Positions 2,410-19,245 of a stretch of DNA of 28,525 nt are shown in pieces (within the stretch, counting starts at the first letter, position 1; the number at the start of each line of letters is the position of its first letter). Both the position numbers and the translations under genes were made by a program. Source of the stretch: a virus (lineage: Duplodnaviria > Heunggongvirae > Uroviricota > Caudoviricetes); IMG/VR virus record IMGVR_UViG_643348547_000003, positions 1 through 28,525 of that record; one strand, 5' to 3'. The notes under the pieces are model-generated. The model made no database searches. It saw nothing but the letters and a program-made list of their open reading frames with translations, and was not told where the DNA came from.

Positions 2410-2434
2410 ATTATCTCAGAATAAAATATTATGA

Positions 2435-2470
2435 ATTACTGATTTGAGAATTTGTACTCAAATCAGTAAT
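2435..2470. terminator. Perfect 14-bp inverted repeat hairpin between convergent genes (putative bidirectional terminator)
   Basis: ATTACTGATTTGAG (2435..2448), 8-nt loop, CTCAAATCAGTAAT (2457..2470). Lies between the alpA stop (2409) and the stop of the minus-strand gene (2479). Confidence 0.45.
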
Positions 2471-2478
2471 AACATTCT

Positions 2479-3015: not shown

Positions 3016-3365
3016 AGCATTCTAACTCCCTTAACTTATTTATTACTTTCTCTTTATGATAAGAGAGGGGAATGACTTGGTAAAGTGATTTGTCATTAAT
3101 AATGATAATCCTTGCGATAAATATTTCTGCAAGTTATTTATCTGTTTGTTGCTATCTTGTTAAGCGTTGGGTGTGGTTTATATTTGGAGCGACTTTATTT
3201 AATCGTGATTTTATGGATTTATATTTATATCCTGTAAGATAAGCGCATGTTAGTTTAGGAGTAGTGTCAGATAAAATTATTCGGAGTAGAACTACCTTTT
3301 CTGTTTATTGCCAGTATTTACATAGCAATGCGCCGTAGTTACTCACATCACGGCGCTGATACTAA

Positions 3366-3668
3366 TTATTCAGATTCTTTGGCTTTACGCCGCTGGAGTT
3401 CTTCACGAGCGACGGCTACGAGTTGCCCGATTTCCTCCGCTGCCTTGATGCCGATTTGTTCGACCTTAGCTAAGGCATCCAGTGAAGACACGAGGGGATT
3501 TTCTCCGCTTCCTTCTGCCTGGCGGCGGGCGATCTCACCGCGCATGGCGGTTACTATGAATCCGGCGTTGCTTTCGCCGTCCAGTTTTACGGATTCCATG
3601 CCCTCCATAACATCGTGGGGAACCCTGATCGTTGTCATTTGCGATTTTGCATTTTTGTATACAGACAT
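3366..3668 (-). CDS. Putative ribbon-helix-helix (Arc/CopG-like) transcriptional regulator
   Basis: 100 aa. The N-terminal segment TTIRVPHDVMEGMESVKLDGESNAGFIVTAMRGEI fits a beta-strand plus two-helix RHH pattern. Transcribed divergently from the replication-side genes, with an operator-like repeat array in between. Confidence 0.55.
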   Translation of the reverse strand: MSVYKNAKSQMTTIRVPHDVMEGMESVKLDGESNAGFIVTAMRGEIARRQAEGSGENPLVSSLDALAKVEQIGIKAAEEIGQLVAVAREELQRRKAKESE

Positions 3669-3688
3669 AGTTAATCACCAATTTGTTA

Positions 3689-3790
3689 TGTGTATATCAC
3701 TATACACAAAAGTGAGATATAAAAACACTTGCAATGTATATCACCACAATATAATGTATATCTCACATTATGGTCGCTATGTATCTCACA
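3689..3790. promoter_or_regulatory. Divergent promoter/operator region with repeated TGTATATC(T)CAC motifs
   Basis: Palindrome TGTGTATA-TCAC-TATACACA at 3689..3708. Related motif copies at 3712..3721 (reverse orientation), 3734..3744, 3754..3767 and 3779..3790. Located between the divergent genes 3366..3668 (minus) and 3877..4242 (plus). Confidence 0.5.
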
Positions 3791-3876
3791 ATGATCGATT
3801 CATAAAAACGACGAAACCCGGCAGTGCGCGAACACTAACCGGGCTTCTAACCAAACCGTTAAACGAGGTAACTATT

Positions 3877-4242
3877 ATGGCTGGAACACAGCATACCCAA
3901 ACTCACCCTAAATTTATATACATCTTTCTGGCGCTACATCGCGATCGCATAGCAGATGGAGCAACTACGGTACATGTAGCCGCTGACACGCTGGTTGATG
4001 CCCGCAAGATGGTTAAGGAGATGGGCTATACTGCGGCTTTCTGGAAAGGGCGGGAAGAAAACACGCTGTTTATTCAGAAATGTGAAAACAATTTCCTCTG
4101 GCGTTTTATCGCCCTGAGTACGACACAACCGCGCGTGATTACCATCGAGGCCACCAGCGAACAGGAAGCCCGCCAGCAATCCCCAACTGGCTGCGTGATG
4201 ATATTCGCCGCCCGTATTCGTCAGGAGGTGTGCCATGAATGA
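3877..4242 (+). CDS. Hypothetical protein (first gene of the rightward operon)
   Basis: 121 aa, ATG at 3877 preceded by GAGG. This is the 3' portion of the long track ORF 3328..4242, whose upstream part is antisense to the RHH gene. No family assigned. Confidence 0.6.
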   Translation: MAGTQHTQTHPKFIYIFLALHRDRIADGATTVHVAADTLVDARKMVKEMGYTAAFWKGREENTLFIQKCENNFLWRFIALSTTQPRVITIEATSEQEARQQSPTGCVMIFAARIRQEVCHE

Positions 4243-4459
4243 TCTTTATTTTAAAGTGCTGACACATGCTGAAAACGCGCTCGTTTGTGGCAAAAATATG
4301 CGAGAAATCTTATCAACCTGGCTTGATGGGACAACAAATGCGGAACACGATGAACGGGATGCTAATTTAGCTGGAGCGTTAATTACGTTACTTGATCCTG
4401 TCATCAAAGAGCTGGATGAAGCTATAAAAATACACGACCAGAGCTATACCGAAGAATAA
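4235..4459 (+). CDS. Hypothetical protein
   Basis: 74 aa. Start overlaps the upstream stop; AGGAGG six nt upstream of the ATG. Confidence 0.5.
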   Translation: MNDLYFKVLTHAENALVCGKNMREILSTWLDGTTNAEHDERDANLAGALITLLDPVIKELDEAIKIHDQSYTEE

Positions 4460-4461
4460 AA

Positions 4462-4749
4462 ATGAAAAATAAATTTTCTGGCTTTATTGCCAGCGGTCAA
4501 GCTCATTCAAAAATCAGCCTTGGGGATATTTTCAAAGATAGCTATGGCTATCGGGTAAAGATTATTTCGGTTGATGATCGCCGTGTCTCTTATTTGCGTG
4601 ATGGTTATGATTTTGAATGTGTTATGCCGCGTCAGCAGTTCGAAAGAGATTTCATTCTGGTAAAAAATTGCAAGACAGATAATCAGAGGCGTGCCGCAGG
4701 CTATATCCGCAAAATTCGGGCAATGTTAGTTGCCGGAGGTAATAAATGA
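4462..4749 (+). CDS. Hypothetical small protein (possibly DUF4222-like; uncertain)
   Basis: 95 aa, tightly packed in the operon. The segment YRVKIISVDDRRVSYLRDGYDFECVMPRQQFERDFILV resembles what I recall of small conserved satellite/prophage proteins, but no search was run. Confidence 0.5.
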   Translation: MKNKFSGFIASGQAHSKISLGDIFKDSYGYRVKIISVDDRRVSYLRDGYDFECVMPRQQFERDFILVKNCKTDNQRRAAGYIRKIRAMLVAGGNK

Positions 4750-4928
4750 AACGTGCTCCGAACTTAAAATACCAACCGCGCGACAAAATGACAGAAGTCA
4801 TCATTTTTGCTGGCAGTGATGCCTAGAGCCATGCAAAAGAATGGAATGAATGGGCGGGTAAGCATATTGCAGCAGATGATACACCACCAGTAATTCTGGG
4901 TACGGAACAACTGGAAAACCTGGATGAT

Positions 4929-6566
4929 ATGCAAATTATCGATGAAGGCCGTCATTATGTGCGTGTTTATCGTGCCGGAAAGATTGCAGAGAAAAATCTG
5001 ACGAAGGTTGCGACATTACTTGCTATTGCAGGCGTAAAGGAAGCACGTTGTTACCGTAGCTTTGTTGATCGAGAGCCTGAAGACTGGACTCCGCGCCTTG
5101 TCGGCCTAAAAGCTGAAGCGGAGCATGGGGAAAGTCTGGTGATTGAACTGCCAGTGAAGAAGGCTGAGCGCAAAAATGACGAGCGTGCTTCATCTTTGGC
5201 GTTGAATCAGATGGGGGCCAGCCAGCGCGGTGAAGTTCTCCTTGCACATTACGGCGGCGAACTGGCAATCAATGCCGACTCTGACACCGTTCATCATTAC
5301 AACGGCGTTGTATGGGAGCCGGTTCAGGATAAAGAGTTACAGCGTGCTATGGCGCAGATTTTCATTGATGCGGAGATCAGCTATTCGCAGAACGCTATTA
5401 AATCGGCGGTAGATACCATGAAGTTAAGTTTGCCTGTAATGGGGAATACAGCCCGTAACCTGATTGGATTCAGTAACGGGGTATTTGATACCAGAACTGG
5501 TAATTTTCGGGAGCATAACAAAAACGACTGGTTGTTAATTGCCAGTGAATTACCTTTCAGCCCACCAGCAGAGGGGGAAACGCTGGCAACACATGCGCCG
5601 AATTTCTGGAAGTGGTTGCGCCGTTCGGTGGCTGAGAATGACCGCAAGGCAGATCGCGTACTGGCGGCATTATTCATGGTGCTGGCGAACCGGTACGACT
5701 GGCAGTTATTCATTGAGGTAACAGGGCCGGGGGGAAGTGGTAAAAGTGTGATGGCGGAGATTTGCACCATGCTGGCGGGTAAGGCTAATACAGTATCAGC
5801 AAGCATGAAGGCGCTGGAAGATGCAAGGGAACGTGCGTTAGTGGTTGGCTTTTCGCTGATTATCATGCCGGATATGACCCGCTACGCTGGTGATGGGGCA
5901 GGGATTAAGGCCATTACAGGCGGTGACAAGGTGGCAATTGACCCGAAACACAAAGCCCCCTATTCAACGCGTATTCCGGCAGTAGTGCTGGCGGTTAACA
6001 ATAACGCCATGTCATTCAGTGACCGCAGCGGGGGGATCTCACGTCGTCGGGTGATATTCAATTTTTCGGAAGTTGTACCGGAGAACGAACGCGATTCGAT
6101 GCTGGCGGAAAAAATAGAAGGTGAGCTGGCGGTAGTGATTCGTCATCTGCTTACAAGGTTTGCTGATCAGGACGAAGCCAGACGCCTGTTATATGAGCAG
6201 CAGAAATCTGAAGAAGCACTGGCGATAAAGCGAGAGGGGGATTCGCTGGTGGACTTCTGCGGTTATCTCATGGCATCGGTAATGTGTGATGGCCTGTTAG
6301 TGGGTAATGCTGAAATTGTGCCATTCAGCCCACGCAGGTATCTCTATCATGCCTATCTGGCTTATATGAGGGCACATGGGTTTGGTAAACCTGTAACACT
6401 GACGCGCTTCGGTAAAGATATGCCGGGGGCAATGGCGGAATATGGCAGGGAGTATATGAAACGGAAAACGAAGCACGGTTTGCGTTCAAACGTGACCCTG
6501 ACGGAGGAATCAGAAGACTGGATGCCATCATGTGTATCGGTCACTAATGACGATAGCAAAAATTAA
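4929..6566 (+). CDS. Replication protein, P4 alpha C-terminal / D5-like SF3 helicase-NTPase family
   Basis: 545 aa. Walker A motif VTGPGGSGKSV, Walker B-like LIIMPDMT, and a D5_N-like region (VVWEPVQDKELQRAMAQIFID). No obvious toprim primase domain. Immediately followed by an iteron array. Confidence 0.8.
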   Translation: MQIIDEGRHYVRVYRAGKIAEKNLTKVATLLAIAGVKEARCYRSFVDREPEDWTPRLVGLKAEAEHGESLVIELPVKKAERKNDERASSLALNQMGASQRGEVLLAHYGGELAINADSDTVHHYNGVVWEPVQDKELQRAMAQIFIDAEISYSQNAIKSAVDTMKLSLPVMGNTARNLIGFSNGVFDTRTGNFREHNKNDWLLIASELPFSPPAEGETLATHAPNFWKWLRRSVAENDRKADRVLAALFMVLANRYDWQLFIEVTGPGGSGKSVMAEICTMLAGKANTVSASMKALEDARERALVVGFSLIIMPDMTRYAGDGAGIKAITGGDKVAIDPKHKAPYSTRIPAVVLAVNNNAMSFSDRSGGISRRRVIFNFSEVVPENERDSMLAEKIEGELAVVIRHLLTRFADQDEARRLLYEQQKSEEALAIKREGDSLVDFCGYLMASVMCDGLLVGNAEIVPFSPRRYLYHAYLAYMRAHGFGKPVTLTRFGKDMPGAMAEYGREYMKRKTKHGLRSNVTLTEESEDWMPSCVSVTNDDSKN

Positions 6567-6580
6567 ACTTATGGAATAAC

Positions 6581-6801
6581 TGTTCACCACTGTTCACCCT
6601 GTCATAAATATCTTTTATATCAGTATATTATAGGGTGAACAGTTATTTATGAACTGTTCACCAAACTATTCACTGTTCACCTTTTTGATTGTTTATTGAG
6701 CTTCAAGGGTGAACAGTGGTGAACAGTTGGTGAATAGTTTTTGTGAAACTGTTCACCCATTAACATTATGAATTAAAAGAGAAAATATCAAAAGGTGAAC
6801 A
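6581..6801. repeat. Iteron array (putative satellite replication origin): about 9 copies of TGTTCACC / GGTGAACA
   Basis: TGTTCACC at 6581, 6591, 6655, 6674 and 6750. Reverse-orientation GGTGAACA at 6634, 6708, 6718 and 6794. This octamer is the iteron I recall from the P4 ori and crr, bound by the alpha protein. Confidence 0.7.
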
Positions 6802-6853
6802 GGTGAAGGGTTAAAACGCAAAAATTTTAATTTACTGCTGTGAGATAAAGCCT

Positions 6854-7099
6854 ATGACAGCGAAGCACACAAAAAAATCACAATCGCACGCCCTTGATTT
6901 GACGGAACACTGGTTAAGGGTGTCGATAAAAATCATCGACCGCAACGCCGGGGAAGGATACGCGAAAGCACATCCCGAACTGATTAGCGCATTCATGACA
7001 ACGGCGGCTGCAAACTTTGCCACTCTGACCGAACGGGAGATTGCTGAAGCGGAGGAAGTGACAACAATCAATATTAAGTCCGGAGAGCAGGCAGCATGA
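6854..7099 (+). CDS. Hypothetical protein
   Basis: 81 aa. Stop overlaps the start of the SSB-like gene (ATGA). Weak ribosome-binding site. Confidence 0.45.
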   Translation: MTAKHTKKSQSHALDLTEHWLRVSIKIIDRNAGEGYAKAHPELISAFMTTAAANFATLTEREIAEAEEVTTINIKSGEQAA

Positions 7100-7545
7100 C
7101 GGCGCAAATATCAGTTTACGGGCGGTTGGTGGACGACCCGCAGACAAAACAGACCAGCAAGGGCACCCCCATGACGCTGGCGCGTATGGCGGTATCACTG
7201 CCCTGCAGTCAGTCGGATGACGGTCAGGCGACGATGTGGTTATCTGTCCTGGCGTTTGGCAGACAAGCCGACGCGCTGGCAAAGCATCACAAAGGCGAAC
7301 TCCTGAGCGTGGCGGGTAATATGCAGGTGAGCCAGTGGACTGGACAGAACGGTGAAACGCGGCAGGGCTGGCAGGTTATCGCAGACAGCGTAATCAGTGC
7401 GCGAACGGTGCGACCGGGCGGCAAAAAAGGTCAACAGGGTCAGGCTACTGACGCACTGAACAGAGCAAAACAACAGGCAGATCAGCAAGGAAGCCATCCA
7501 CCAGTGGGAGATAATGAGCAATGGGGAGATGATATTCCGTTTTAA
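7096..7545 (+). CDS. Single-stranded DNA-binding protein (SSB-like)
   Basis: 149 aa. N-terminal OB-fold-like region, a Gly/Gln-rich linker and a C-terminal acidic tail ending DDIPF, the hallmark of the bacterial SSB C-terminus. Confidence 0.7.
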   Translation: MTAQISVYGRLVDDPQTKQTSKGTPMTLARMAVSLPCSQSDDGQATMWLSVLAFGRQADALAKHHKGELLSVAGNMQVSQWTGQNGETRQGWQVIADSVISARTVRPGGKKGQQGQATDALNRAKQQADQQGSHPPVGDNEQWGDDIPF

Positions 7546-7563
7546 ATATTGCCAATAAAAAAG

Positions 7564-7588
7564 GCCGGAAAAAAATAAATTTTCCGGC
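7564..7588 (+). terminator. Stem-loop downstream of the SSB-like gene (weak terminator candidate)
   Basis: GCCGGAAAA (7564..7572), 7-nt loop, TTTTCCGGC (7580..7588). No clear 3' U-tract. Confidence 0.35.
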
Positions 7589-7762
7589 ATGCTACATAAA
7601 TCCCGACCAAAGGGAGTGAAGATATTAACACTAATTATCCGCGCTGGAGTTGTTATCCCAAAACTTTATACAACATTGCACTCGGTTGCATGTATTCGCA
7701 TGACAAATATCGGTGATAGCATATATCCACAATTATTTTTAATGAATGCAAAGAGGATGCGT

Positions 7763-8803
7763 ATGGTTGATTTATATTCGCCTACCCAGCTTGTACAGGT
7801 GGTTAATGCTGTAGATGTACAAAAACAACTAAATGCGTTGTTTACCAGTTTGTTTTTTACTCGCTCGGTAATGTTTGAATCGCGCGATATTATTCTTGAT
7901 ACAATCGACGATCCAAATATCCCAATTGCAGCGTTTTGTTCTCCTATGGTAGGTAGTAAAGTTTCACGTGACGAAGGGTACGAATCAAAAACAATTCGTC
8001 CAGGCTATATGAAGCCGAAAAGCAGCATTGATCCAAATAAGTTAGCTGTGCGCCCTGCTGGTGTATCACCTGAGCAATACAATGCTTTTGGAGCGCGTAA
8101 TATTAAAGTTAAACAGGCGATTGTAAATCAGGCTAAAGCTATTCGTGCACGTATTGAATGGTTTGCCGTTCAGGCAATCACAACGGGGAAAAATATCATT
8201 GAGGGCGATGGTATTGAACGTTATGAGCTGGACTGGAATATAAAACCACAAAATATCATCACTCAGTCTGGCGGTACTGAGTGGTCAGGTAAGGATAAAG
8301 AAACTTTTGATCCAAATGATGATATTGAGAGCTACGCAGAATTTAGTGAGGGCGTCACTAATATCATCATTATGGGCGGTAATGTATGGAAGAAATACCG
8401 TTCATTCAGAGCGATAAAAGAGGCTCTGGATACCCGTCGTGGTTCTAATTCCGAACTGGAAACGGCCCTTAAAGACCTTGGTGATTCGGTGAGTTTTAAA
8501 GGGTATATGGGCGATGTTGCGATTGTTGTATACAGCGGGCGTTATACCGACGAGGACGGAACTGAAAAACATTTCCTTGATCCTGATTTGATGGTGCTTG
8601 GCAATACGGCTCTTCAGGGGATTGTCGCCTATGGCGGTATTCAGGATCCGGAGCTAATCCGAATGGGGCTGACTAAAGCCGAACTTGCACCGAAAAACTA
8701 TATTGTGCCTGGTGATCCGGCTATTGAATATGTGCAGACACATTCAGCACCACAGCCAATACCGGCCCGCATCAATCGTTTTGTTACCGTTCGCATTGGC
8801 TAA
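7763..8803 (+). CDS. Major capsid protein, phage lambda gpE family (divergent homolog)
   Basis: 346 aa from the ATG at 7763 (AAGAGGA five nt upstream). Alignable along its length to lambda gpE, with shared motifs NIITQSGGTEWS, DTRRGSNSELETA and GDVAIVVYSG. The 5' extension of the track ORF (7589..7762) is probably untranslated. Confidence 0.85.
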   Translation: MVDLYSPTQLVQVVNAVDVQKQLNALFTSLFFTRSVMFESRDIILDTIDDPNIPIAAFCSPMVGSKVSRDEGYESKTIRPGYMKPKSSIDPNKLAVRPAGVSPEQYNAFGARNIKVKQAIVNQAKAIRARIEWFAVQAITTGKNIIEGDGIERYELDWNIKPQNIITQSGGTEWSGKDKETFDPNDDIESYAEFSEGVTNIIIMGGNVWKKYRSFRAIKEALDTRRGSNSELETALKDLGDSVSFKGYMGDVAIVVYSGRYTDEDGTEKHFLDPDLMVLGNTALQGIVAYGGIQDPELIRMGLTKAELAPKNYIVPGDPAIEYVQTHSAPQPIPARINRFVTVRIG

Positions 8804-8812
8804 GGGGGAGCA

Positions 8813-9154
8813 ATGGCTACTCATTACACTGAACTCATGGCTGGCACTGAAGCACTGGTGACTACGCTGGGGATATTTTCAGCTAATAAAGGGGTAATTC
8901 CTGCATTTACGCCACTGATGCAGGAAGATGCAACAGGTGCACTGGTGGTATGGGATGGTTCGAGCGTAGGTAAAGCGGTTTATGTTTCCGCTGTACAAAT
9001 CGACACCGCGAAAAAAACACAGGCTCAGGTCTATAAGACAGGTGTCTTAAATGTTGATGCTCTGAACTGGCCTGAGTCTGTAAAAGAACTGTCAGTAAAG
9101 ATTGCAGCGTTTGTTGGCTCAGGTATTTCTGTTCAGCCGCTGGCTCGTGTGTAA
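8813..9154 (+). CDS. Head decoration protein, lambda gpD-like
   Basis: 113 aa. TPLMQEDATGALVVWDGSSVG and YKTGVLNVDALNWPE...AAFVGSGISV parallel lambda gpD. Lies downstream of the E-like gene, the reverse of the lambda D then E order. Confidence 0.75.
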   Translation: MATHYTELMAGTEALVTTLGIFSANKGVIPAFTPLMQEDATGALVVWDGSSVGKAVYVSAVQIDTAKKTQAQVYKTGVLNVDALNWPESVKELSVKIAAFVGSGISVQPLARV

Positions 9155-9165
9155 AGGGGGATACA

Positions 9166-9549
9166 ATGCAGAATGATTACAATGACCTTAAGCCACTTGC
9201 CGAAATGATGTACCCGAATCCAGCTGTAGAGGAATTAAAAGCTATCGCTGACAAAATGTGTTTAAGCGAGCGCCTTGTTGATATGAATCAGGTGATGGAA
9301 ATTACAACCCTGAGTCGGCGTACACTGCTAAACCTTGAGGCTAGTGGAGAGTTCCCGGAGCGTGTGCAGGTTACGGAAGGGCGTAAGGCCTGGTATTTAA
9401 GTGAAGTGATCGACTGGATAAATAATATTCCTCGCGCTTCTGAATATTGCCGCGTACCTGTCCCAAAAAAGCCAGATGCGGCGCTATGCCTCAAGATTGA
9501 GCGTGTACGCCGCAATGCACGGGATGGTCGCTATAAGCTGATTGGTTGA
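9166..9549 (+). CDS. AlpA-family HTH regulator with an N-terminal extension
   Basis: 127 aa. Core MEITTLSRRTLLNLEASGEFPERVQVTEGRKAWYLSEVIDWI matches the AlpA/HTH_17 pattern. Second AlpA-like gene in the island. Confidence 0.65.
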   Translation: MQNDYNDLKPLAEMMYPNPAVEELKAIADKMCLSERLVDMNQVMEITTLSRRTLLNLEASGEFPERVQVTEGRKAWYLSEVIDWINNIPRASEYCRVPVPKKPDAALCLKIERVRRNARDGRYKLIG

Positions 9550-9557
9550 TGAAATTA

Positions 9558-9581
9558 GGGCCCGCTCTGGCTGGCGGGTCC
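9558..9581 (+). terminator. GC-rich stem-loop after the second AlpA-like gene
   Basis: GGGCCCGC, 8-nt loop, GCGGGTCC, followed by TTTCC. Imperfect stem and short U-tract. Confidence 0.3.
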
Positions 9582-9713
9582 TTTCCGGCGATCTGACAGG
9601 CTACGGGGCGTCAGGCGCGCAGTTTTTTGCTATTTGTGAAAATTTTCCTGTTTAAGGCGTTTCCGTTCTTCTTCGCCGTAACTTAATGTTTTTATTAAAA
9701 ACACCCCCTAAAA

Positions 9714-9770
9714 AGAAAGGAAACGACAGGTGCTAAAAACAGGCTTTTTGGCCTCTGTCGTTTCCTTTCT
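9714..9770. other. Long perfect 16-bp inverted repeat (structured RNA or bidirectional terminator) in a roughly 600-bp non-coding spacer
   Basis: AGAAAGGAAACGACAG (9714..9729), 25-nt loop with an inner mini-hairpin, CTGTCGTTTCCTTTCT (9755..9770). Lies between convergent genes. Confidence 0.4.
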
Positions 9771-10147
9771 CTGGTTTTGTTGCCATCCGTCGCGGTCTAT
9801 CACCAGAAAAAATCTTATCCCTGAGTTGAATCAGGCCCTATTCAGAAGCGGTCAATAACGCGCCGCTAGCTTCACTTCATAGTTATGGCCTACTTCTGCG
9901 CCATTGCAATTGCTTTATGCGCCTTGATGGTGGAATATAGAGCAAGCAGTTTGCGAATAACAAAGTTTCATATGTTTTTTGCTGTGTGGCTAGACAACTT
10001 TACAGCAGAGTTTTGTGTCAGTTCTTTATGTGTGCAAGCAAGCTTGAGGGGGAATTACTTCTGGCTGCATCTTTGCTTAAGAACAGCAATAATTTAATCA
10101 TAAGGAAATGTATATAAGCCTGATTAAATTTCAGGCTTATTGAAATG

Positions 10148-11290
10148 TTAACTCCTTATTAGAGAGTAAATTCCATCCTCTTTAAGGAAGTCTATTACTT
10201 CAAAGAATGAGATAAAGAATTCCCAAGAACCAAAAGCATATGCATGAATTTCGTAAGGTGCAAAATGGAATCTAAATCCATCACTATTTATTGTGAACGA
10301 GTCTAAGTTACTATCCATGATACCCGTTGCAAACGTACTAATGTCGTCCTCACTTGGTTTTTCACCAGTTTTCTCCCAAAATTCACGAGCTGATTCAGAG
10401 ATTATTTTTTGTTTTATCTTATTAATCGCTTCTTGCTCTTTCCCTTCGGTAAATACATCCCATAAACTAAATTTGTATGCGTAGTCATCCTTGGTTATTA
10501 CGAAATTACTAGTTTCAAAATGACTGTTAGGGTGTGCTGCTCCCGCACCATACCAATGTACGGAATGAAGGATGCTCATAACATTTTCGTTACAGTATGA
10601 GATGTTATAACTTTCATTATAGGAACTAGTGTAAGTGTGTTTATATTCTTCATCCCAATATGGTGTTCCTGGCCATAGTGATGTGCGTTCAGAAAAAATA
10701 TGTAAAGCCGCTTTTCCTGAAAAGTAATCACTAATGAGTTTTGCTGATTTCGGTAATGTATGGCTTTCAATTCTTGGATATGCTATTTCAATTTCATGCC
10801 CTGGGATCTTGTTATATTCTTCCTTGAAAACCTCGCTGCTAAAGTTAAATGGCCCATAAGTGATACCTTGAGATATTTCAAGTTTTTGTTGCGATGCTGC
10901 TAATCTTAAAGATCTAGATAAAATGTCCCAACCATCATTTCTCTTAAAATCAATGAATTGGAGCTTGCTTGATATGTAGGCGGGTACTTCGCAATCATCA
11001 ATAAGTAATGGTATCACGAACACATCATCTGGTTTGTAATACTTTAGTTTATCAATGGCGTCATTTATTTCGCGGCGAATATAACCATTTTTCTGAGTGC
11101 TCACTTTGCTAAGGATAAGGATTATCAAGTTTGAATTAGCGAAGTTTTTTTGGATTTCATAATCCCAGTTTACGCCAGCGGGTATATCTTTTACATCCAT
11201 CCAAGGGGAATATCCTCCACTTTTTAGCCTTTCATAGATTTCTTCAGTTATCGTTTCATCTTCTTTTGCATGAGCAAGAAAAATTTTCAT
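10148..11290 (-). CDS. TIR-domain protein with a C-terminal DUF3298/RsiV-like domain (candidate antiphage effector)
   Basis: 380 aa in an AT-rich segment. The N-terminal 140 aa or so carry TIR-like hallmarks (KIFLAHAKEDE...W.D...I..G......I.ILSKVS...NGYIRREI). The C-terminal region contains HWYGAGAAHPNSHFETSNF...LWDVF, resembling the Y-x-GGAHG signature of DUF3298. SD-like AAGGA upstream of the start. No partner gene adjacent. Confidence 0.75.
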   Translation of the reverse strand: MKIFLAHAKEDETITEEIYERLKSGGYSPWMDVKDIPAGVNWDYEIQKNFANSNLIILILSKVSTQKNGYIRREINDAIDKLKYYKPDDVFVIPLLIDDCEVPAYISSKLQFIDFKRNDGWDILSRSLRLAASQQKLEISQGITYGPFNFSSEVFKEEYNKIPGHEIEIAYPRIESHTLPKSAKLISDYFSGKAALHIFSERTSLWPGTPYWDEEYKHTYTSSYNESYNISYCNENVMSILHSVHWYGAGAAHPNSHFETSNFVITKDDYAYKFSLWDVFTEGKEQEAINKIKQKIISESAREFWEKTGEKPSEDDISTFATGIMDSNLDSFTINSDGFRFHFAPYEIHAYAFGSWEFFISFFEVIDFLKEDGIYSLIRS

Positions 11291-11499
11291 TGAATATTCC
11301 TTTATAATTTAACTAATTAAGTGAAGGAGGCTTTACTTGGCTGTGTTAGAAAAAATTCGGTTTGTTTTTTGTACGATGCCAAGAAGGCTTTTCCCTAACC
11401 ATGTATTGCAGCATGTATTGCTACGTAATTCTGCACCCTCTCATTTATAAAATAAATCTCTGTTAAATCAAGTATCTTTTTTCTATTTGACTCATGTAA

Positions 11500-12288
11500 C
11501 CCAAGCATGAGGTGAATCCGCAGATGACCCTGCGTCGCCTGCCGGATGAAGATCCGCAGAATCTGGCGGACCCGGCTTACCGCCGCCGTCGCATCATCAT
11601 GCAGAACATGCGTGACGAAGAGCTGGCCATTGCTCAGGTCGAAGAGATGCAGGCCGTTTCTGCCGTGCTTAAGGGCAAATACACCATGACCGGTGAAGCC
11701 TTCGATCCGGTTGAGGTGGATATGGGCCGCAGTGCGGCGAATAACATCACGCAGTCCGGCGGCACGGAGTGGAGCAAGCGTGACAAGTCCACGTATGACC
11801 CGACCGACGATATCGAAGCCTACGCGCTGAACGCCAGCGGTGTGGTGAATATCATCGTGTTTGATCCGAAAGGCTGGGCGCTGTTCCGTTCCTTCAAAGC
11901 CGTCAAGGAGAAGCTGGATACCCGTCGTGGCTCTAATTCCGAGCTGGAGACAGCGGTGAAAGACCTGGGTAAAGCGGTGTCCTATAAGGGGATGTATGGC
12001 GATGTTGCCATCGTCGTGTATTCCGGACAGTACGTGGAAAACGGCGTCAAAAAGAACTTCCTGCCGGACAACACGATGGTGCTGGGGAACACTCAGGCAC
12101 GCGGTCTGCGTACCTATGGCTGTATTCAGGATGCGGACGCACAGCGCGAAGGCATTAACGCCTCTGCCCGTTACCCGAAAAACTGGGTGACCACCGGCGA
12201 TCCGGCGCGTGAGTTCACCATGATTCAGTCAGCACCGCTGATGCTGCTGGCTGACCCTGATGAGTTCGTGTCCGTACAACTGGCGTAA
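11500..12288 (+). pseudogene. E: Lambda major capsid protein E, 5'-truncated fragment (about C-terminal 260 aa)
   Basis: Translation PKHEVNPQMTLRRLPDEDPQNLADPAYRRRRIIMQNMRDEE... to ...DPDEFVSVQLA matches my recollection of lambda gpE from about residue 80 to the end. An in-frame TAA sits immediately upstream (11497..11499) and the upstream sequence is unrelated. Confidence 0.85.
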
Positions 12289-12329
12289 TCGTGGCCCTTC
12301 GGGGCCATTTTCTCTCTGTGGAGGAGTCC

Positions 12330-12728
12330 ATGACGAAAGATGAACTGATTGCCCGTCTCCGCTCGCTGGGTGAACAACTGAACCGTGATGTCAGTCTGAC
12401 GGGGACGAAAGAAGAACTGGCGCTCCGTGTGGCAGAGCTGGAAGAAGAGCTTGATGACACGGGCGACACTGCCGGTCAGGATACCCCTCTCAGCCCGGAA
12501 AATGTGCTGACCGGGCATGAACATGAGGTGGTATCAGCGCAGCCGGATACCGTGATTCAGGATACGGCTGAACTGGTCACGGTCGTGGCACTGGTGACGC
12601 TGCATACTGATGCACTTCACGCCACGCGGGATGAACCTGTGGCATTTGTGCTGCCGGGAACGGCGTTCCGTGTCTCTGCCGGTGTGGCAGCTGAAATGAC
12701 AGAGCGCGGCCTGGCCAGAATGCAATAA
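12330..12728 (+). CDS. FI: Lambda-like FI (DNA packaging / head-tail joining accessory protein)
   Basis: 132 aa, MTKDELIARLRSLGEQLNRDVSLTGTKEELALRVAELEEELDD..., near-identical to lambda gpFI as I recall it. GGAGGAG ribosome-binding site. Confidence 0.9.
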   Translation: MTKDELIARLRSLGEQLNRDVSLTGTKEELALRVAELEEELDDTGDTAGQDTPLSPENVLTGHEHEVVSAQPDTVIQDTAELVTVVALVTLHTDALHATRDEPVAFVLPGTAFRVSAGVAAEMTERGLARMQ

Positions 12729-12739
12729 CGGGAGGCGCT

Positions 12740-13093
12740 GTGGCTGATTTCGATAACCTGTTCGATGCTGCCATTGCCCGCGCCGATGAAACGATACGCG
12801 GGTACATGGGAACGTCAGCCACCATGACATCCGGTGAGCAGTCCGGCGCAGTAATACGTGGTGTTTTTGATGACCCTGAAAATATCAGCTATGCCGGACA
12901 GGGCGTGCGCGTTGAAGGCTCCAGCCCGTCCCTGTTTGTCCGGACTGATGATGTGCGGCAACTGCGGCGTGGAGACACGCTGACCATCGGTGAGGAAAAC
13001 TTCTGGATAGATCGTGTTTCGCCGGATGATGGCGGAAGCTGTCATCTCTGGCTTGGGCGGGGCGTACCGCCTGCCGTTAACCGTCGCCGCTGA
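12740..13093 (+). CDS. FII: Lambda-like FII (head-tail connector)
   Basis: 117 aa, MADFDNLFDAAIARADETIRGYMG...HLWLGRGVPPAVNRRR, matching lambda gpFII. Confidence 0.9.
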   Translation: MADFDNLFDAAIARADETIRGYMGTSATMTSGEQSGAVIRGVFDDPENISYAGQGVRVEGSSPSLFVRTDDVRQLRRGDTLTIGEENFWIDRVSPDDGGSCHLWLGRGVPPAVNRRR

Positions 13094-13104
13094 AAGGGGG
13101 ATGT

Positions 13105-13683
13105 ATGGCCATAAAAGGTCTTGAGCAGGCCGTTGAAAACCTCAGCCGTATCAGCAAAACGGCGGTGCCTGGTGCCGCCGCAATGGCCATTAACCGCGTT
13201 GCTTCATCCGCGATATCGCAGTCGGCGTCACAGGTTGCCCGTGAGACAAAGGTACGCCGGAAACTGGTAAAGGAAAGGGCCAGGCTGAAAAGGGCCACGG
13301 TTAAAAATCCGCAGGCCAGAATCAAGGTTAACCGGGGGGATTTGCCCGTAATAAAGCTGGGTAACGCGCGGATTGTCCTGTCCCGACGCAGGCGTCGTAA
13401 AAAGGGGCAGCGTTCAGCCCTGAAAGGTGGCGGCAGCGTGCTTGTGGTGGGAAACCGTCGTATTCCCGGCGCGTTTATTCAGCAACTGAAAAATGGCCGC
13501 TGGCATGTTATGCAGCGTGTGGCCGGGAAAAACCGTTACCCCATTGATGTGGTGAAAATCCCGATGGCGGTGCCACTGACCACGGCGTTTAAACAGAATA
13601 TTGAACGGATACGGCGTGAGCGTCTTCCGAAAGAGCTGGGCTATGCGCTGCAGCATCAACTGAGAATGGTAATAAAGCGATGA
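13105..13683 (+). CDS. Z: Lambda-like Z (tail completion protein)
   Basis: 192 aa, MAIKGLEQAVENLSRISKTAVPGAAAMAINRV..., matching lambda gpZ. Confidence 0.9.
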   Translation: MAIKGLEQAVENLSRISKTAVPGAAAMAINRVASSAISQSASQVARETKVRRKLVKERARLKRATVKNPQARIKVNRGDLPVIKLGNARIVLSRRRRRKKGQRSALKGGGSVLVVGNRRIPGAFIQQLKNGRWHVMQRVAGKNRYPIDVVKIPMAVPLTTAFKQNIERIRRERLPKELGYALQHQLRMVIKR

Positions 13684-14075
13684 AACATACTGAACTCCGT
13701 GCAGCCGTACTGGATGCACTGGAGAAGCATGACACCGGGGCGACGCTTTTTGATGGTCGCCCCGCTGTTTTTGATGAGGCGGATTTTCCGGCAATTGCCG
13801 TTTATCTCACCGGCGCTGAATACACGGGCGAAGAGCTGGACAGCGATACCTGGCAGGCGGAGCTGCATATTGAAGTTTTCCTGCCTGCTCAGGTGCCGGA
13901 TTCAGAGCTGGATTCGTGGATGGAGTCCCGGATTTATCCGGTGATGAGCGATATTCCGGCACTGTCAGATTTGATCACCAGTATGGTGGCCAGTGGCTAT
14001 GACTACCGACGCGACGATGATGCGGGCCTGTGGAGTTCAGCCGATCTGACGTATGTCATTACCTATGAAATGTGA
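13680..14075 (+). CDS. U: Lambda-like U (tail terminator protein)
   Basis: 131 aa, [38 protein letters not shown]..., matching lambda gpU. ATGA overlap with Z. Confidence 0.9.
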
Positions 14076-14082
14076 GGACGAT

Positions 14083-14823
14083 ATGCCTGTACCAAATCCA
14101 GTAATGCCGGTGAAAGGTGCCGGGACCACACTGTGGGTTTATAAGGGGAACGGTGACCCTTATGCGAACCCGCTTTCAGACGTTGACTGGTCGCGTCTGG
14201 CAAAAGTTAAAGACCTGACGCCCGGCGAACTGACCGCTGAGTCCTATGACGACAGCTATCTCGATGATGAGGATGCGGACTGGACTGCGACCGGGCAGGG
14301 GCAGAAATCTGCCGGAGATACCAGCTTCACGCTGGCGTGGATGCCCGGAGAGCAGGGGCAGCAGGCGCTGCTGGCGTGGTTTAATGAAGGTGATACCCGT
14401 GCCTATAAAATCCGCTTTCCGAACGGCACGGTCGATGTGTTCCGTGGCTGGGTCAGCAGTATCGGTAAGGCGGTGACGGCGAAGGAAGTGATCACCCGCA
14501 CGGTGAAGGTCACCAATGTGGGACGCCCGTCGATGGCTGAAGATCGCAGTACGGTGACGGCGGCAACCGGCATGACGGTAACGCCAGCCAGTGCGTCCGT
14601 AGTGAAAGGGCAGAGCACCACGCTGACCGTGGCATTCCAGCCGGAAGGCGTAACCGACAAGAGCTTCCGTGCGGTGTCTGCGGATAAAACAAAAGCCACC
14701 GTGTCGGTCAGTGGTATGACCATCACCGTGAACGGCGTTGCTGCAGGCAAGGTCAACATTCCGGTTGTATCCGGTAATGGTGAGTTTGCTGCGGTTGCAG
14801 AAATTACCGTCACCGCCAGTTAA
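14083..14823 (+). CDS. V: Lambda-like V (major tail protein with C-terminal Ig-like domain)
   Basis: 246 aa from the internal ATG at 14083 ([22 protein letters not shown]...), matching lambda gpV. The track ORF start at 14053 is upstream of the conserved start. Confidence 0.9.
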
Positions 14824-14838
14824 TCCGGAGAGTCAGCG

Positions 14839-15261
14839 ATGTTCCTGAAAACCGAATCATTTGAACATAACGGTGTGACCGTCACGCTTTCTGAACTGTC
14901 AGCCCTGCAGCGCATTGAGCATCTCGCCCTGATGAAACGGCAGGCAGAACAGGCGGAGTCAGACAGCAACCGGAAGTTTACTGTGGAAGACGCCATCAGA
15001 ACCGGCGCGTTTCTGGTGGCGATGTCCCTGTGGCATAACCATCCGCAGAAGACGCAGATGCCGTCCATGAATGAAGCCGTTAAACAGATTGAGCAGGAAG
15101 TGCTTACCACCTGGCCCACGGAGGCAATTTCTCATGCTGAAAACGTGGTGTACCGGCTGTCTGGTATGTATGAGTTTGTGGTGAATAATGCCCCTGAACA
15201 GACAGAGGACGCCGGGCCCGCAGAGCCTGTTTCTGCGGGAAAGTGTTCGACGGTGAGCTGA
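14839..15261 (+). CDS. G: Lambda-like G (tail assembly chaperone)
   Basis: 140 aa, MFLKTESFEHNGVTVTLSELSALQRIEHLALMKRQAEQ..., matching lambda gpG. Confidence 0.9.
   Translation: MFLKTESFEHNGVTVTLSELSALQRIEHLALMKRQAEQAESDSNRKFTVEDAIRTGAFLVAMSLWHNHPQKTQMPSMNEAVKQIEQEVLTTWPTEAISHAENVVYRLSGMYEFVVNNAPEQTEDAGPAEPVSAGKCSTVS
15237..15243 (+). other. Programmed -1 ribosomal frameshift site (G GGA AAG) for the G-T fusion
   Basis: Slippery heptamer GGGAAAG near the 3' end of G, at the point where the T frame opens. This is the conserved lambda G/GT recoding site. Confidence 0.8.
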
Positions 15262-15701
15262 GTTTTGCCCTGAAACTGGCGCGTGAGATGGGGCGACCCG
15301 ACTGGCGTGCCATGCTTGCCGGGATGTCATCCACGGAGTATGCCGACTGGCACCGCTTTTACAGTACCCATTATTTTCATGATGTTCTGCTGGATATGCA
15401 CTTTTCCGGGCTGACGTACACCGTGCTCAGCCTGTTTTTCAGCGATCCGGAGATGCATCCGCTGGATTTCAGTCTGCTGAATCGGCGCGAGGCTGACGAA
15501 GAGCCTGAAGATGATGTGCTGATGCAGAAAGCGGCAGGGCTTGCCGGAGGCGTTCGTTTTGGCCCGGACGGGAATGAAGTTATCCCCGCTTCCCCGTATG
15601 TGGCGGACATGACGGAGGATGACGTAATGCTGATGACAGTATCAGAAGGGATCGCAGGAGGAGTCCGGTATGGCTGCACCGGTAGGCGATCTGGTCGTTG
15701 A
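15243..15701 (+). CDS. T: Lambda-like T segment of the G-T tail assembly chaperone (expressed by -1 frameshift from G)
   Basis: ORF in the -1 frame overlapping the G end (FDGELSFALKLAREMGRPDWRAMLAGMSSTEYADWHRFY...), matching lambda gpT. No independent start is expected. Confidence 0.85.
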   Translation: MFDGELSFALKLAREMGRPDWRAMLAGMSSTEYADWHRFYSTHYFHDVLLDMHFSGLTYTVLSLFFSDPEMHPLDFSLLNRREADEEPEDDVLMQKAAGLAGGVRFGPDGNEVIPASPYVADMTEDDVMLMTVSEGIAGGVRYGCTGRRSGR

Positions 15702-18216
15702 TTTAAGTCTGGATGCGGCCAGATTTGACGAGCAGATGGCCAGAGTCAGGCGTCATTTTTCCGGTACGGAAAGTGATGCGAAAAAAACAGCGGCAGTCGT
15801 TGAACAGTCAATGAACCGGCAGGCGCTGGCTGCACAGAAAGCGGGGATTTCCGTCGGGCAGTATAAAGCTGCCATGCGTATGCTGCCTGCGCAGTTCACC
15901 GACGTGGCCACGCAGCTTGCAGGGGGGCAGAATCCGTGGCTCATCCTGCTGCAACAGGGTGGTCAGGTGAAGGACTCCTTCGGCGGGATGATCCCCATGT
16001 TCAGGGGGCTTGCCGGTGCGATCACCCTGCCGATGGTTGGTATCACTTCGCTGGCGGTGGCGACCGGTGCGCTGGCGTATGCCTGGTATCAGGGTGACTC
16101 AACCCTGTCCGATTTCAACAAAACGCTGGTCCTTTCCGGTAATCAGGCGGGACTGACGGCAGATCGTATGCTGGCCCTGTCCAGAGCCGGGCAGGCGGCA
16201 GGGCTGACGTTTAACCAGACCAGCGAGTCACTGACGGCGCTGGTGAATGCCGGTGTGCGTGGTGGTGAGCAGTTTGAGGCAATCAGCCAGAGTGTGGCGC
16301 GTTTCTCCTCTGCATCCGGCGTGGAGGTGGACAAGGTCGCTGAAGCCTTCGGGAAGCTGACCACTGACCCGACGTCTGGGTTGACGGCGATGGCACGTCA
16401 GTTCCATAACGTGACGGCGGAGCAGATTGCGTATGTTGCTCAGTTGCAGCGTTCCGGCGATGAAGCCGGGGCATTGCAGGCGGCGAACGAGGCCGCAACG
16501 AAAGGGTTTGATGACCAGACCCGCCGCCTGAAAGAGAACATGGGCACGCTGGAGACCTGGGCAGACAGGACTGCGCGGGCATTCAAATCCATGTGGGATG
16601 CGGTGCTGGATATTGGTCGTCCTGATACCGCGCAGGAGATGCTGATTAAGGCAGAGGCTGCGTTTAAGAAAGCAGACGACATCTGGAATCTGCGCAAGGA
16701 TGATTATTTTGTTAACGATGAAGCGCGGGCGCGTTACTGGGATGATCGTGAAAAGGCCCGTCTTGCGCTTGAAGCCGCCCGAAAGAAGACTGAGCAGCAG
16801 ACTCAACAGGACAAAAATGCGCAGCAGCAGAGCGATACCGAAGCGTCACGGCTGAAATATACCGAAGAGGCGCAGAAGGCTTACGAACGGCTGCAGACGC
16901 CGCTGGAGAAATATACCGTCCGTCAGGAAGAACTGAACAAGGCACTGAAAGACGGGAAAATCCTGCAGGCGGATTACAACACGCTGATGGCGGCAGCGAA
17001 AAAGGATTATGAAGCGACGCTGAAAAAGCCGAAGCAGTCCGGCGTGAAGGTGTCTGCGGGCGATCGTCAGGAAGACAGTGCTCATGCTGCCCTGCTGACG
17101 CTTCAGGCAGAACTCCGGACGCTGGAGAAGCATGCCGGAGCAAATGAGAAAATCAGCCAGCAGCGCCGGGATTTGTGGAAGGCGGAAAGTCAGTTCGCGG
17201 TACTGGAGGAGGCGGCGCAACGTCGCCAGCTGTCCGCACAGGAGAAATCCCTGCTGGCGCATAAAGATGAGACGCTGGAGTACAAACGCCAGCTGGCTGC
17301 ACTTGGCGACAAGGTCACGTATCAGGAGCACCTGAACGCGCTGGCGCAGCAGGCGGATAAATTCGCACAGCAGCAACGGGCAAAACGGGCAGCCATTGAG
17401 GCGAAAAACCGGGGGCTGACTGACCGGCAGGCAGCGCGGGACGCCACGGAACAGCGCCTGAAGGAACAGTATGGCGATAATCCGCTGGCGCTGAATAGCG
17501 TCATGTCAGAGCAGAAAAAGACCTGGGCGGCTGAAGACCAGCTTCGCGGGAGCTGGATGGCAGGCCTCAGGTCAGGCTGGAGTGAGTGGGAAGAGAGCGC
17601 CACGGACAGTATGTCGCAGGTTAAAAGTGCAGCCACGCAGACCTTTGATGGTATTGCACAGAATATGGCGGCGATGCTGACCGGCAGTGAACAGAACTGG
17701 CGCAGCTTCACCCGTTCCGTGCTGTCCATGATGACAGAAATTCTGCTTAAGCAGGCAATGGTGGGGATCGTCGGGAGTGTCGGCAGTGTCATTGGCGGTG
17801 CATCAGCGTCAGGCGGTACAGCCATTCAGGCATCTGCGGCGAAATTCCATTTTGCGACCGGAGGATTTACGGGAACCGGCGGCAAATATGAGCCAGCGGG
17901 GATTGTTCACCGTGGTGAATTTGTCTTCACGAAGGAGGCAACCAGCCGGATTGGCGTGGGGAATCTTTACCGGCTTATGCGCGGCTATGCCACCGGCGGT
18001 TATGTCGGTACACCGGGCAGCATGGCGGACAGTCGGTCGCAGGCGTCCGGGACGTTTGAGCAGAATAACCATGTGGTGATTAACAACGACGGCACGAACG
18101 GTCAGATAGGGCCACAGGCGCTGAAGGCTGTTTATGACGTAGCCCGTAAGGCGGCAATGGATGTTGTGACCGGGCAGATGCGTGATGGTGGTCTGTTCTC
18201 CGGAGGTGGACGATGA
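15670..18216 (+). CDS. H: Lambda-like H (tail tape measure protein)
   Basis: 848 aa, MAAPVGDLVVDLSLDAARFDEQMARVRRHF..., near-identical to lambda gpH as recalled, with a small deletion in the Gly-rich region near the C-terminus. Confidence 0.92.
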   Translation: MAAPVGDLVVDLSLDAARFDEQMARVRRHFSGTESDAKKTAAVVEQSMNRQALAAQKAGISVGQYKAAMRMLPAQFTDVATQLAGGQNPWLILLQQGGQVKDSFGGMIPMFRGLAGAITLPMVGITSLAVATGALAYAWYQGDSTLSDFNKTLVLSGNQAGLTADRMLALSRAGQAAGLTFNQTSESLTALVNAGVRGGEQFEAISQSVARFSSASGVEVDKVAEAFGKLTTDPTSGLTAMARQFHNVTAEQIAYVAQLQRSGDEAGALQAANEAATKGFDDQTRRLKENMGTLETWADRTARAFKSMWDAVLDIGRPDTAQEMLIKAEAAFKKADDIWNLRKDDYFVNDEARARYWDDREKARLALEAARKKTEQQTQQDKNAQQQSDTEASRLKYTEEAQKAYERLQTPLEKYTVRQEELNKALKDGKILQADYNTLMAAAKKDYEATLKKPKQSGVKVSAGDRQEDSAHAALLTLQAELRTLEKHAGANEKISQQRRDLWKAESQFAVLEEAAQRRQLSAQEKSLLAHKDETLEYKRQLAALGDKVTYQEHLNALAQQADKFAQQQRAKRAAIEAKNRGLTDRQAARDATEQRLKEQYGDNPLALNSVMSEQKKTWAAEDQLRGSWMAGLRSGWSEWEESATDSMSQVKSAATQTFDGIAQNMAAMLTGSEQNWRSFTRSVLSMMTEILLKQAMVGIVGSVGSVIGGASASGGTAIQASAAKFHFATGGFTGTGGKYEPAGIVHRGEFVFTKEATSRIGVGNLYRLMRGYATGGYVGTPGSMADSRSQASGTFEQNNHVVINNDGTNGQIGPQALKAVYDVARKAAMDVVTGQMRDGGLFSGGGR

Positions 18217-19240: not shown

Positions 19241-19245
19241 ATCCC

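Follow-up and report, generated by a model that had tools for sequence, protein, structure and literature searches.

What role does a TIR-domain gene play when it stands alone at the boundary between a phage satellite and the prophage in which that satellite resides? The question arises from a 28,525-nucleotide stretch of DNA catalogued as part of a tailed virus (IMG/VR record IMGVR_UViG_643348547_000003; Caudoviricetes), the whole of which we call the window. On its minus strand, positions 10148–11290 form an open reading frame (ORF) with an ATG start that encodes a protein of 380 residues (WP_000688840.1), labelled 'TIR domain-containing protein' in RefSeq. A preliminary description, drawn up from the nucleotide sequence, proposed that this protein fuses a TIR domain to a DUF3298/RsiV-like region and is a candidate antiphage system. 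Here we establish the identities and folds of its domains, the conservation of its catalytic residue, the solitary status of its gene, the position of that gene in a variable hotspot, and the swapping of effector domains on the same C-terminal module. The reading that we favour, with a probability of roughly 60%, is that of a single-polypeptide abortive-infection immune protein carried as exchangeable 3′ cargo of a helper-embedded phage-inducible chromosomal island (HE-PICI).

A TIR domain joined to an RsiV-like module

Residues 3–122 of the protein match Pfam TIR_2 (E = 2.8e-21, 76.7 bits; cutoff 28), with the Pfam TIR model also above threshold (22.5 bits; cutoff 21.3), and residues 278–362 match DUF3298 (E = 1e-10, 42.8 bits; cutoff 24.1). 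DUF4163, the third profile named in the preliminary description, stays below threshold in the window protein (its PdaC/DUF4163 model covers residues 166–256 at 16.4 bits, against a cutoff of 29.1); some homologs score higher with it, yet at or below the cutoff. Structure prediction and comparison bear out the TIR domain and the RsiV-like region alike. In a Foldseek search of the PDB, an AlphaFold2 model built with 47 homologs in the alignment (mean predicted local distance difference test score 88.8; predicted template modelling score (pTM) 0.63) places the C-terminal 240 or so residues on 3CYG (E = 3e-13) and on the RsiV–lysozyme complex 5JEN (E = 9e-10, target TM-score 0.67), as well as on 3S5T and 4E72. 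Across these solved DUF4163+DUF3298 structures, E values run from 3e-13 to 2e-8, aligned columns from 231 to 275 and target TM-scores from 0.56 to 0.71. As the fold match spans both halves, the model indicates a complete DUF4163+DUF3298 module despite the sub-threshold PdaC profile. The N terminus adopts the flavodoxin-like TIR fold and matches the TIR domains of the short prokaryotic Argonaute TIR-APAZ system (SPARTA), Cat1, AbTir, SARM1, MAL, MyD88 and TRR-2 with target TM-scores of up to 0.80, the SPARTA TIR-APAZ domains being its nearest solved relatives.

The protein can thus be laid out along the minus strand as a TIR domain (residues 1–125; 10916–11290), recognized by TIR_2 and by its SPARTA TIR-APAZ likeness; a linker helix (residues 126–145; 10856–10915), modelled as helix H120–134 and bearing the conserved consensus 'SL.LAAEQQ.IE'; a DUF4163/PdaC-like half (residues 146–256; 10523–10855), with a weak PdaC match and the fold match to 3CYG, 5JEN, 3S5T and 4E72; and the DUF3298 half (residues 257–380; 10151–10522). 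The last two form the putative sensor. No transmembrane segment or signal peptide was detected in the 380 residues (maximum Kyte–Doolittle hydropathy over 19 residues, 1.27), and the N terminus is the beta-A strand of the TIR fold. Because there is no hydrophobic segment, we take the RsiV-like module to be cytoplasmic.

Conservation singles out a catalytic-type site in the TIR domain and two loops in the C-terminal module. Seven TIR positions (F4, W30, D32, G39, W42, S61 and E74) and eight C-terminal positions (Y247, G248, G250, A252, H253, N255, Y346 and Y351) are invariant in the 47 diverse homologs, and mean pairwise identity across the family is 49% in the TIR half versus 39% in the sensor half. 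E74 (codon at 11069–11071, minus strand) is the glutamate in the segment NGYIRREI that had been suspected of being catalytic. It aligns with Glu77 in the catalytic site of CrtSPARTA, and the E77A mutant of that protein is without activity as a nicotinamide adenine dinucleotide hydrolase (NADase; PMC9097488). The first C-terminal loop, W-Y-G-A-G-A-A-H-P-N (residues 246–255; 10526–10555, minus strand), is invariant or nearly so as a whole and aligns with 'YYQfTGGAHGI' of 3CYG, its GAGAAHPN portion with the 'TGGAHG' loop. The likeness first drawn between WYGAGAAHP and the DUF3298 signature holds in its conservation and its alignment to GGAHG, although the motif sits at the end of the DUF4163-like half, outside the Pfam DUF3298 match. 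The second loop, P-Y346-x4-Y351-x2-G354, is invariant and lies in the DUF3298 half (10229–10255, minus strand).

Both loops have counterparts in the RsiV ectodomain and its structural relatives (5JEN, 3CYG, 3S5T/BF2082 and 4E72/PA4972), which share the two-domain fold together with the Y..GGAH and P-Y-x4-(P/Y)-x-G loops; in RsiV these form the saddle that binds lysozyme. In a profile alignment to the solved structures, Y346 corresponds to RsiV Tyr255 and G354 to RsiV Gly263, and among the RsiV lysozyme contacts these two alone could be aligned in the window protein. Tyr255 and Gly263 lie in the Y-E-V-A-P-G-Y loop, which RsiV inserts into the lysozyme active site (PMC5014341, Table 2). RsiV binds and inhibits lysozyme, whereas Rv1980c, of the same fold, does not bind it (PMC5014341). 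Sequence identity between the window sensor and RsiV-type structures is 13–19%, with RsiV contact residues partly conserved. RsiV moreover carries this module outside the cytoplasm, with a membrane anchor and an anti-sigma domain attached, whereas the window protein has no leader or transmembrane segment and is fused to a TIR domain.

Different N-terminal domains on one putative sensor module

In an exhaustive profile search that covered 1.84 billion representative proteins, the sensor half had 124 relatives at E ≤ 1e-30, most of them with an N-terminal offset of about 135 residues, as expected for a TIR domain. In two relatives (P0305 and P0319) an HNH endonuclease domain precedes the sensor module instead of TIR, and in a third (P0233) a DUF4062 domain does so. 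By alignment, these HNH and DUF4062 proteins share the whole sensor, including A252, H253, Y346 and G354. The pairing of a constant sensor with interchangeable toxic domains is the pattern of Avs proteins, CBASS effectors and similar immune proteins, and effector swapping is the strongest new argument that the window protein is a sensor–effector immune protein.

Other variants of the module were also seen. One relative carries an extra C-terminal beta-helix (P0201) and another a lipoprotein-type leader (P0323), in which the module is extracytoplasmic as it is in RsiV; four that resembled new N-terminal fusions (P0210, P0246, P0256 and P0228) were rejected as truncated calls of TIR genes. The HNH variant lies on a contig of just 1 kb. 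The gene for the DUF4062 version (L019) adjoins a QueD/QueC/QueE/FolE (7-deazaguanine) cluster and a TumE-family gene.

The gene is cargo of a helper-embedded satellite

The window is Escherichia coli IAI39 DNA (100% identity to NC_011750). Its left part (1–11500) is a satellite of about 10 kb and the remainder (11500–28525) is the right arm of a helper prophage. RefSeq annotation and comparison between strains assign to the satellite an integrase (int), a helix-turn-helix regulator, an Icd-like gene, a DUF4222 gene, a primase, a single-stranded DNA-binding protein (SSB), a major capsid gene and a head-decoration gene of its own, and AlpA. The satellite is inserted within the lambda-like major capsid gene E of the prophage. 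Intact composites (DSM 103246 and XJ6.1) preserve a 5′ capsid-E fragment, the satellite in the order int...alpA–cos–cargo, and a 3′ fragment; the 3′ fragment on the window's attR side (11500–12288, plus strand) is annotated in RefSeq as a pseudogene, 'major capsid protein, missing N-terminus', and its 5′ counterpart is found in the intact composites. With its gene set co-oriented inside a late gene of the prophage and its attachment (att) sites in that gene, the carrier is a known HE-PICI of the 11capE type, to which it corresponds in its int, AlpA, Icd-like, DUF4222, primase, SSB, capsid and decoration genes, its doubled arm motif and its insertion in capsid gene E. The 11capE elements were described by the Williams lab (NAR Genom Bioinform 2023; PMC10111431) in a paper that mentions a doubled motif unique to HE-PICIs and contains no mention of TIR or of cargo, nor any discussion of defence genes.

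The window copy differs from intact 11capE elements in being degraded by an IS3 element and a primase stop. IS3 (1–1214) truncates the integrase to 334 aa from 411 aa, with loss of attL and the int N terminus; its ALIL pseudoknot (817–933) was the sole match in an Rfam scan. The primase gene has an internal stop, and the left arm of the helper is gone, replaced by IS3 and tRNA-Arg DNA. The TIR ORF is intact and encodes the same protein, WP_000688840.1, in all three records examined.

The doubled motif TGTATTGCAGCATGTATTGC (11402–11421, plus strand), which has the form TGTATTGC-N4-TGTATTGC, keeps a fixed distance at attR, in all sibling satellites, of some 91–99 bp to the phage gene split by the insertion. 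It recurs near attL, upstream of int, in intact copies and is kept even in a Cedecea satellite; in locus L002 it occurs at 3307–3326 and 13801–13820. It probably represents integrase arm sites. An 11-nt repeat was considered as the att core and rejected, the repeat being the doubled arm motif itself. Only about 110 bp separate the attR arm motif from the start codon of the TIR gene downstream of it, so that integrase binding could overlap the cargo promoter.

The TIR gene is the last gene of the satellite, on the opposite strand, between cos and attR. The last core gene encodes an AlpA-family regulator (9166–9549, plus strand; phrog_2790, E = 2e-49) and is convergent with the TIR gene. The 600-bp non-coding spacer reported between them is present, but it is not featureless: it holds a lambda-type cos region of the satellite (9574–9780, plus strand) with 90–93% identity to lambdoid phage DNA. 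We identify this segment as cos because the homologous lambdoid DNA lies directly upstream of the Nu1 terminase gene, as it does in phage PhiR46_1. Owing to this homology, around 3000 E. coli genomes match only the first 300–380 bases of the query.

Homology to sibling satellites ends at 9640–9981, depending on the sibling, and restarts at 11480–11487. The cassette specific to TIR-carrying satellites thereby spans 9982–11401, its right limit set by the arm motif at 11402. It is markedly AT-rich, as first reported (GC content 0.34–0.37 across the TIR gene segment versus 0.46–0.58 in both flanks), and has its own candidate expression signals: a Shine–Dalgarno sequence, AAAGGAA (11297–11303), in an upstream region where a promoter is presumed (11291–11401, minus strand), and a few bases past the stop codon a terminator-like hairpin read from the sequence, ATAAGCCTGA-N7-TCAGGCTTAT (10114–10140, minus strand), which has a weak T-run and was missed by a consensus scan.

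The cassette is one of several alternatives at this position. Of 5426 complete E. coli genomes, 403 carry the head-decoration/AlpA satellite module and 16 the TIR gene, the carriers of which came from dog, chicken, soil, river and human sources. In the sampled siblings the 3′ slot holds single genes, always on the opposite strand: an AbiJ homolog (L015, 7171–7932; PADLOC E = 2e-21, Pfam Abi_C), a DUF2971 protein matching the PADLOC candidate PDC-S31 (L013, 6641–7399), a 290-aa nuclease with a Pfam Mrr_cat domain (L012, 6783–7655) and a Pfam DUF3892 protein (L014, 7380–7667). In two further siblings the slot contains terS and short ORFs only. The AbiJ, PDC-S31 and Mrr-type genes agree with the early suggestion that the satellite/prophage junction is a position for defence cargo, and support the view that the HE-PICI 3′ slot, from cos to the attR arm, behaves as a defence cargo hotspot. 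The Penadés group likewise places the immune systems of PICIs at the 5′ or 3′ end of the element (PMC11364771).

A second AT-rich accessory patch (GC content 0.31–0.40) occurs at the 5′ end of the satellite, at about 2400–3700 of the window, with two minus-strand genes: a 178-aa ORF (2479–3015) that had no match in Pfam, PADLOC or PHROG, and a YlcI/YnfO family gene (3366–3668). Siblings carry DUF2971 plus SWIM genes or HicB in their 5′ patch, which may be the PICI 5′ immune hotspot with a second cargo gene.

A scattered family without a conserved partner

Full-length relatives are rare and widely dispersed. A first search gave 131 full-length clusters, and a profile of the C-terminal half gave 1,906, of which the best 120 all have the TIR_2+DUF3298 architecture at about 380–425 aa. 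With one genome taken per species, some 55 full-length copies occur among 185,579 species, distributed over Alpha-, Beta-, Gamma- and Deltaproteobacteria, Acidobacteriota, Deinococcus, Bacteroidota and Nitrospirota. IMG/VR viral contigs contain 13 full-length copies and plasmids just two, both distant; BFVD yielded no significant structural match.

Several copies lie in mobile elements. In Cedecea a 71% homolog fills the equivalent slot in a related satellite, within the capsid gene of a contractile-tail prophage. The helper in this strain (Cedecea sp. S5-13, L004) has head genes of lambda type but a contractile tail module of P2 type, so the helpers of this kind of satellite are not siphoviruses alone. 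In Burkholderia cepacia a 39% homolog stands by itself on the opposite strand, upstream of the terS of a prophage with an nSTAND3/Mrr protein, and in Xanthomonas a 36% homolog lies between the replication and packaging genes of a prophage. Elsewhere, homologs occur in Yersinia enterocolitica int/TrfA/TrbL islands beside an AAA_13/AAA_23 ATPase or two reverse transcriptases (65%), in a Sphingomonas MobA/MmeI island (27%), and beside a type IV secretion system toxin/immunity pair in Stenotrophomonas (39%). Many distant homologs, by contrast, have housekeeping surroundings. A bulk scan of 128 nearest neighbours recovered integrases, CI repressors, terminase, capsid, tail, reverse transcriptases, mad3, a KAP NTPase and many housekeeping genes. 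The enterobacterial and prophage copies thus show a clear link to mobile elements and defence genes, which across the entire family is unproven.

No neighbour is conserved. All-against-all clustering of flanking ORFs within 5 kb at 64 loci found no family in more than 6, and the recurrent families are generic (ABC ATPase, HlyD and integrase). The TIR–DUF3298 gene is solitary across loci. In three related prophage loci (L107, 5971–8584; L105; L043) it is followed by a small ORF and, about 380 bp downstream, by a Phage_lysozyme gene (PF00959), all co-oriented. This placement next to lysis genes is intriguing given the RsiV–lysozyme precedent, yet it is an ordinary position for a moron.

Comparison with known immune systems

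SPARTA offers the closest parallel to the effector half. The TIR domain and those of SPARTA TIR-APAZ proteins (8ISY, 8Z92, 8SPO and 8QLP) are mutual best matches by sequence (E ~ 1e-11) and fold, the catalytic glutamate stands at the same position (E74 and Glu77), and the best PADLOC matches are the 'Aga_TIR-PNTD' models. By analogy, NAD+ depletion upon oligomerization would be expected of the window protein. It nonetheless has no APAZ domain, two-thirds of it being DUF4163+DUF3298; PADLOC pAgo–TIR matches end near residue 120 of models with 430–443 positions; and no Argonaute gene lies near the TIR gene in the window or at the 64 loci.

Other TIR systems were compared in the window, the intact composites and the 64 loci. 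No ThsA-type effector (SIR2–SLOG, Macro–TM, caspase-like and others) was found there. Nor was a cyclase of the cyclic oligonucleotide-based antiphage signalling system (CBASS) or of the pyrimidine cyclase system for antiphage resistance (Pycsar), and the SAVED_TIR model matched in the TIR part alone. The report that neither ThsA, a cyclase nor another partner gene is adjacent was accordingly upheld. In PADLOC and NCBIfam, pAgo-associated TIR models rank best, followed by weak ThsB and retron-TIR matches. The protein resembles Thoeris ThsB in being a TIR protein with an accessory domain and in weak profile similarity; ThsB_TIR (13.8 bits; cutoff 21.2) and the NCBIfam type III ThcB4 model (16.4 bits; cutoff 220) both fall short of threshold.

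In organization, the protein is most like one-protein TIR immunity (TIR-NLR, TIR-Avs/bNACHT, TIR-SAVED and TIR-STING), in which sensor and TIR effector share one polypeptide and an unvarying sensor may be paired with different effectors; it differs in having no STAND NTPase, repeat, SAVED or STING domain. TIR-NLR from P4 hotspots is a precedent for a one-protein sensor and TIR in satellite and prophage hotspots (PMC9122126). PADLOC v2, NCBIfam and PHROGs match the TIR third and hold no full-length model. A literature search retrieved no paper that pairs TIR with DUF3298, DUF4163 or RsiV, although a listing in the primary PICI immunity paper is possible, and none that links the DUF4163+DUF3298 fold to immunity. 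One Thoeris preprint removed standalone TIRs from its screen, a domain-centric screen (NAR 2026) excluded single-gene systems, and the DefensePredictor paper mentions neither TIR nor DUF3298. The carrier, TIR NADase effectors and one-protein TIR sensors are thus already known, whereas the combination with a cytoplasmic DUF4163+DUF3298 sensor is unnamed in PADLOC v2, NCBIfam and searchable papers, in agreement with the preliminary description, which had recognized no named defence system.

A proposed mechanism and its alternatives

If the protein is an immune sensor–effector, the cytoplasmic DUF4163+DUF3298 module would act as the sensor, its ligand binding at the conserved saddle loops W246–N255 and P345–G354. 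Binding would relieve autoinhibition or drive oligomerization, the N-terminal TIR domains would assemble into an active NADase with E74 as the catalytic residue, and depletion of NAD+ would arrest the infected cell and stop phage production. We infer the NADase activity, the oligomerization, the antiphage phenotype and the identity of the ligand from the features described above. With its own expression signals, and antisense to the late transcription of satellite and helper, the TIR gene would be expressed in the lysogen; upon helper induction, read-through might oppose or dampen expression of the cargo. We raise this antisense damping because every sampled cargo gene in the slot is antisense to late transcription.

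For the ligand, the RsiV precedent would point to lysozyme-type proteins, and the invariance of the H-P-N loop across phyla is no less consistent with a conserved small molecule. The same invariance of the ten-residue motif argues for a conserved ligand or a structural role over a fast-evolving phage protein as partner.

Several observations weigh against an immune role. The invariant sensor motif, common to secreted DUF3298 proteins and found across phyla, could be structural instead of ligand-binding. The relative arrangement of the two halves of the protein in the model is uncertain at a pTM of 0.63. A consensus sigma-70 promoter scan upstream of the TIR gene passed no site. The satellite copy is decayed, so ongoing selection on its cargo cannot be assumed. 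A tblastn search of 50,697 sequenced phage genomes returned no match, and in the bulk neighbour scan many distant homologs stand among housekeeping genes, with phage or defence neighbours a minority.

These housekeeping contexts also bear on a different reading, that the protein is a general sensor of stress or envelope damage, or a toxin-like addiction module, in which TIR-dependent dormancy is set off by a conserved small molecule of the host, for instance a nucleotide or a fragment or precursor of peptidoglycan. The Gly/Ala-rich H-P-N loop, invariant from Proteobacteria to Acidobacteriota and Deinococcus, suggests just such an invariant ligand, and in PdaC, after which the Pfam family is named, the DUF4163/DUF3298 module accompanies a peptidoglycan deacetylase. 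A host-derived danger signal would, however, be compatible with defence too, and the patchy distribution (16 of 5426 E. coli; about 55 of 185,579 species) and carriage in a hotspot fit accessory immunity better; we regard a general stress sensor as unlikely.

Doubtful to a similar degree is that the protein serves the satellite or prophage itself, as an interference or lysis-accessory factor that binds the endolysin of the helper or of a competitor, or manipulates NAD metabolism or the timing of lysis. The carrier is an element that parasitizes its helper phage, a Phage_lysozyme gene lies about 380 bp from the TIR gene at three prophage loci, and RsiV binds and inhibits lysozyme through homologous loops (PMC5014341). 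Those three loci, however, are related prophages in which adjacency to lysis genes is the usual place for morons, and no lysis cassette lies near the E. coli and Cedecea satellites or the Yersinia, Sphingomonas and Stenotrophomonas islands. Of the residues through which RsiV contacts lysozyme only part is conserved, at 14–16% identity, and Rv1980c shows that the fold need not bind lysozyme.

We think it quite improbable that the TIR domain is instead a signal producer analogous to ThsB, its product (an isomer of cyclic ADP-ribose or similar) activating an effector whose gene lies at another site of the host or helper genome. ThsB proteins often carry extra sensing domains, and weak ThsB matches exist (PADLOC ThsB1, E = 8.5e-5; Pfam ThsB_TIR, 13.8 bits). 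The latter is nevertheless below its threshold of 21.2 bits, the TIR domain is nearest to the NAD-depleting SPARTA TIRs, and an HNH domain in place of TIR on the same sensor fits an effector role. The 64 loci, across phyla, share no conserved neighbour, and since the gene travels unaccompanied, whether on a satellite, a prophage or an island, an effector acting in trans would usually be absent from a new host.

Virulence proteins with TIR domains are known from Brucella, Staphylococcus and pathogenic E. coli, IAI39 is itself an extraintestinal pathogen and Foldseek matches the TIR domains of MAL and MyD88, but a TcpC/Btp-like factor delivered to host cells to block Toll-like receptor/MyD88 signalling is disfavoured as highly improbable, given that the protein has no secretion signal, that homologs come mainly from soil and water bacteria (Burkholderia, Collimonas, Xanthomonas, Sphingomonas and Acidobacteriota), that E. 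coli carriers have varied sources, that conservation of the catalytic glutamate is strict, and that the closest TIR relatives are immune NADases of bacteria.

Implications

The single-polypeptide immune reading makes the TIR–DUF4163–DUF3298 protein a good, testable defence candidate, mechanistically conventional on its effector side and with a structurally precedented sensor. A solved lysozyme complex exists for the sensor fold, so that the hunt for a trigger and structure-guided mutagenesis can begin at once. The HE-PICI 3′ slot in turn offers a defence hotspot that can be mined, with about 400 E. coli genomes carrying the module and differing in their cargo, and screens that omit standalone genes leave the class of lone TIR proteins unexplored. 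If the protein is defensive, it would add a new sensor fold to the one-protein TIR immune systems. More speculatively, and with odds that we place well on the low side, the cytoplasmic RsiV-like module could be an unrecognized pattern-recognition domain, swappable among TIR, HNH and DUF4062 effectors, that senses phage lysozyme-type enzymes as they build up in the cytoplasm or a molecule derived from peptidoglycan and set free when phages attack the cell wall. If so, it would be a bacterial counterpart of lysozyme or muropeptide sensing, wired directly to TIR-mediated depletion of NAD+.

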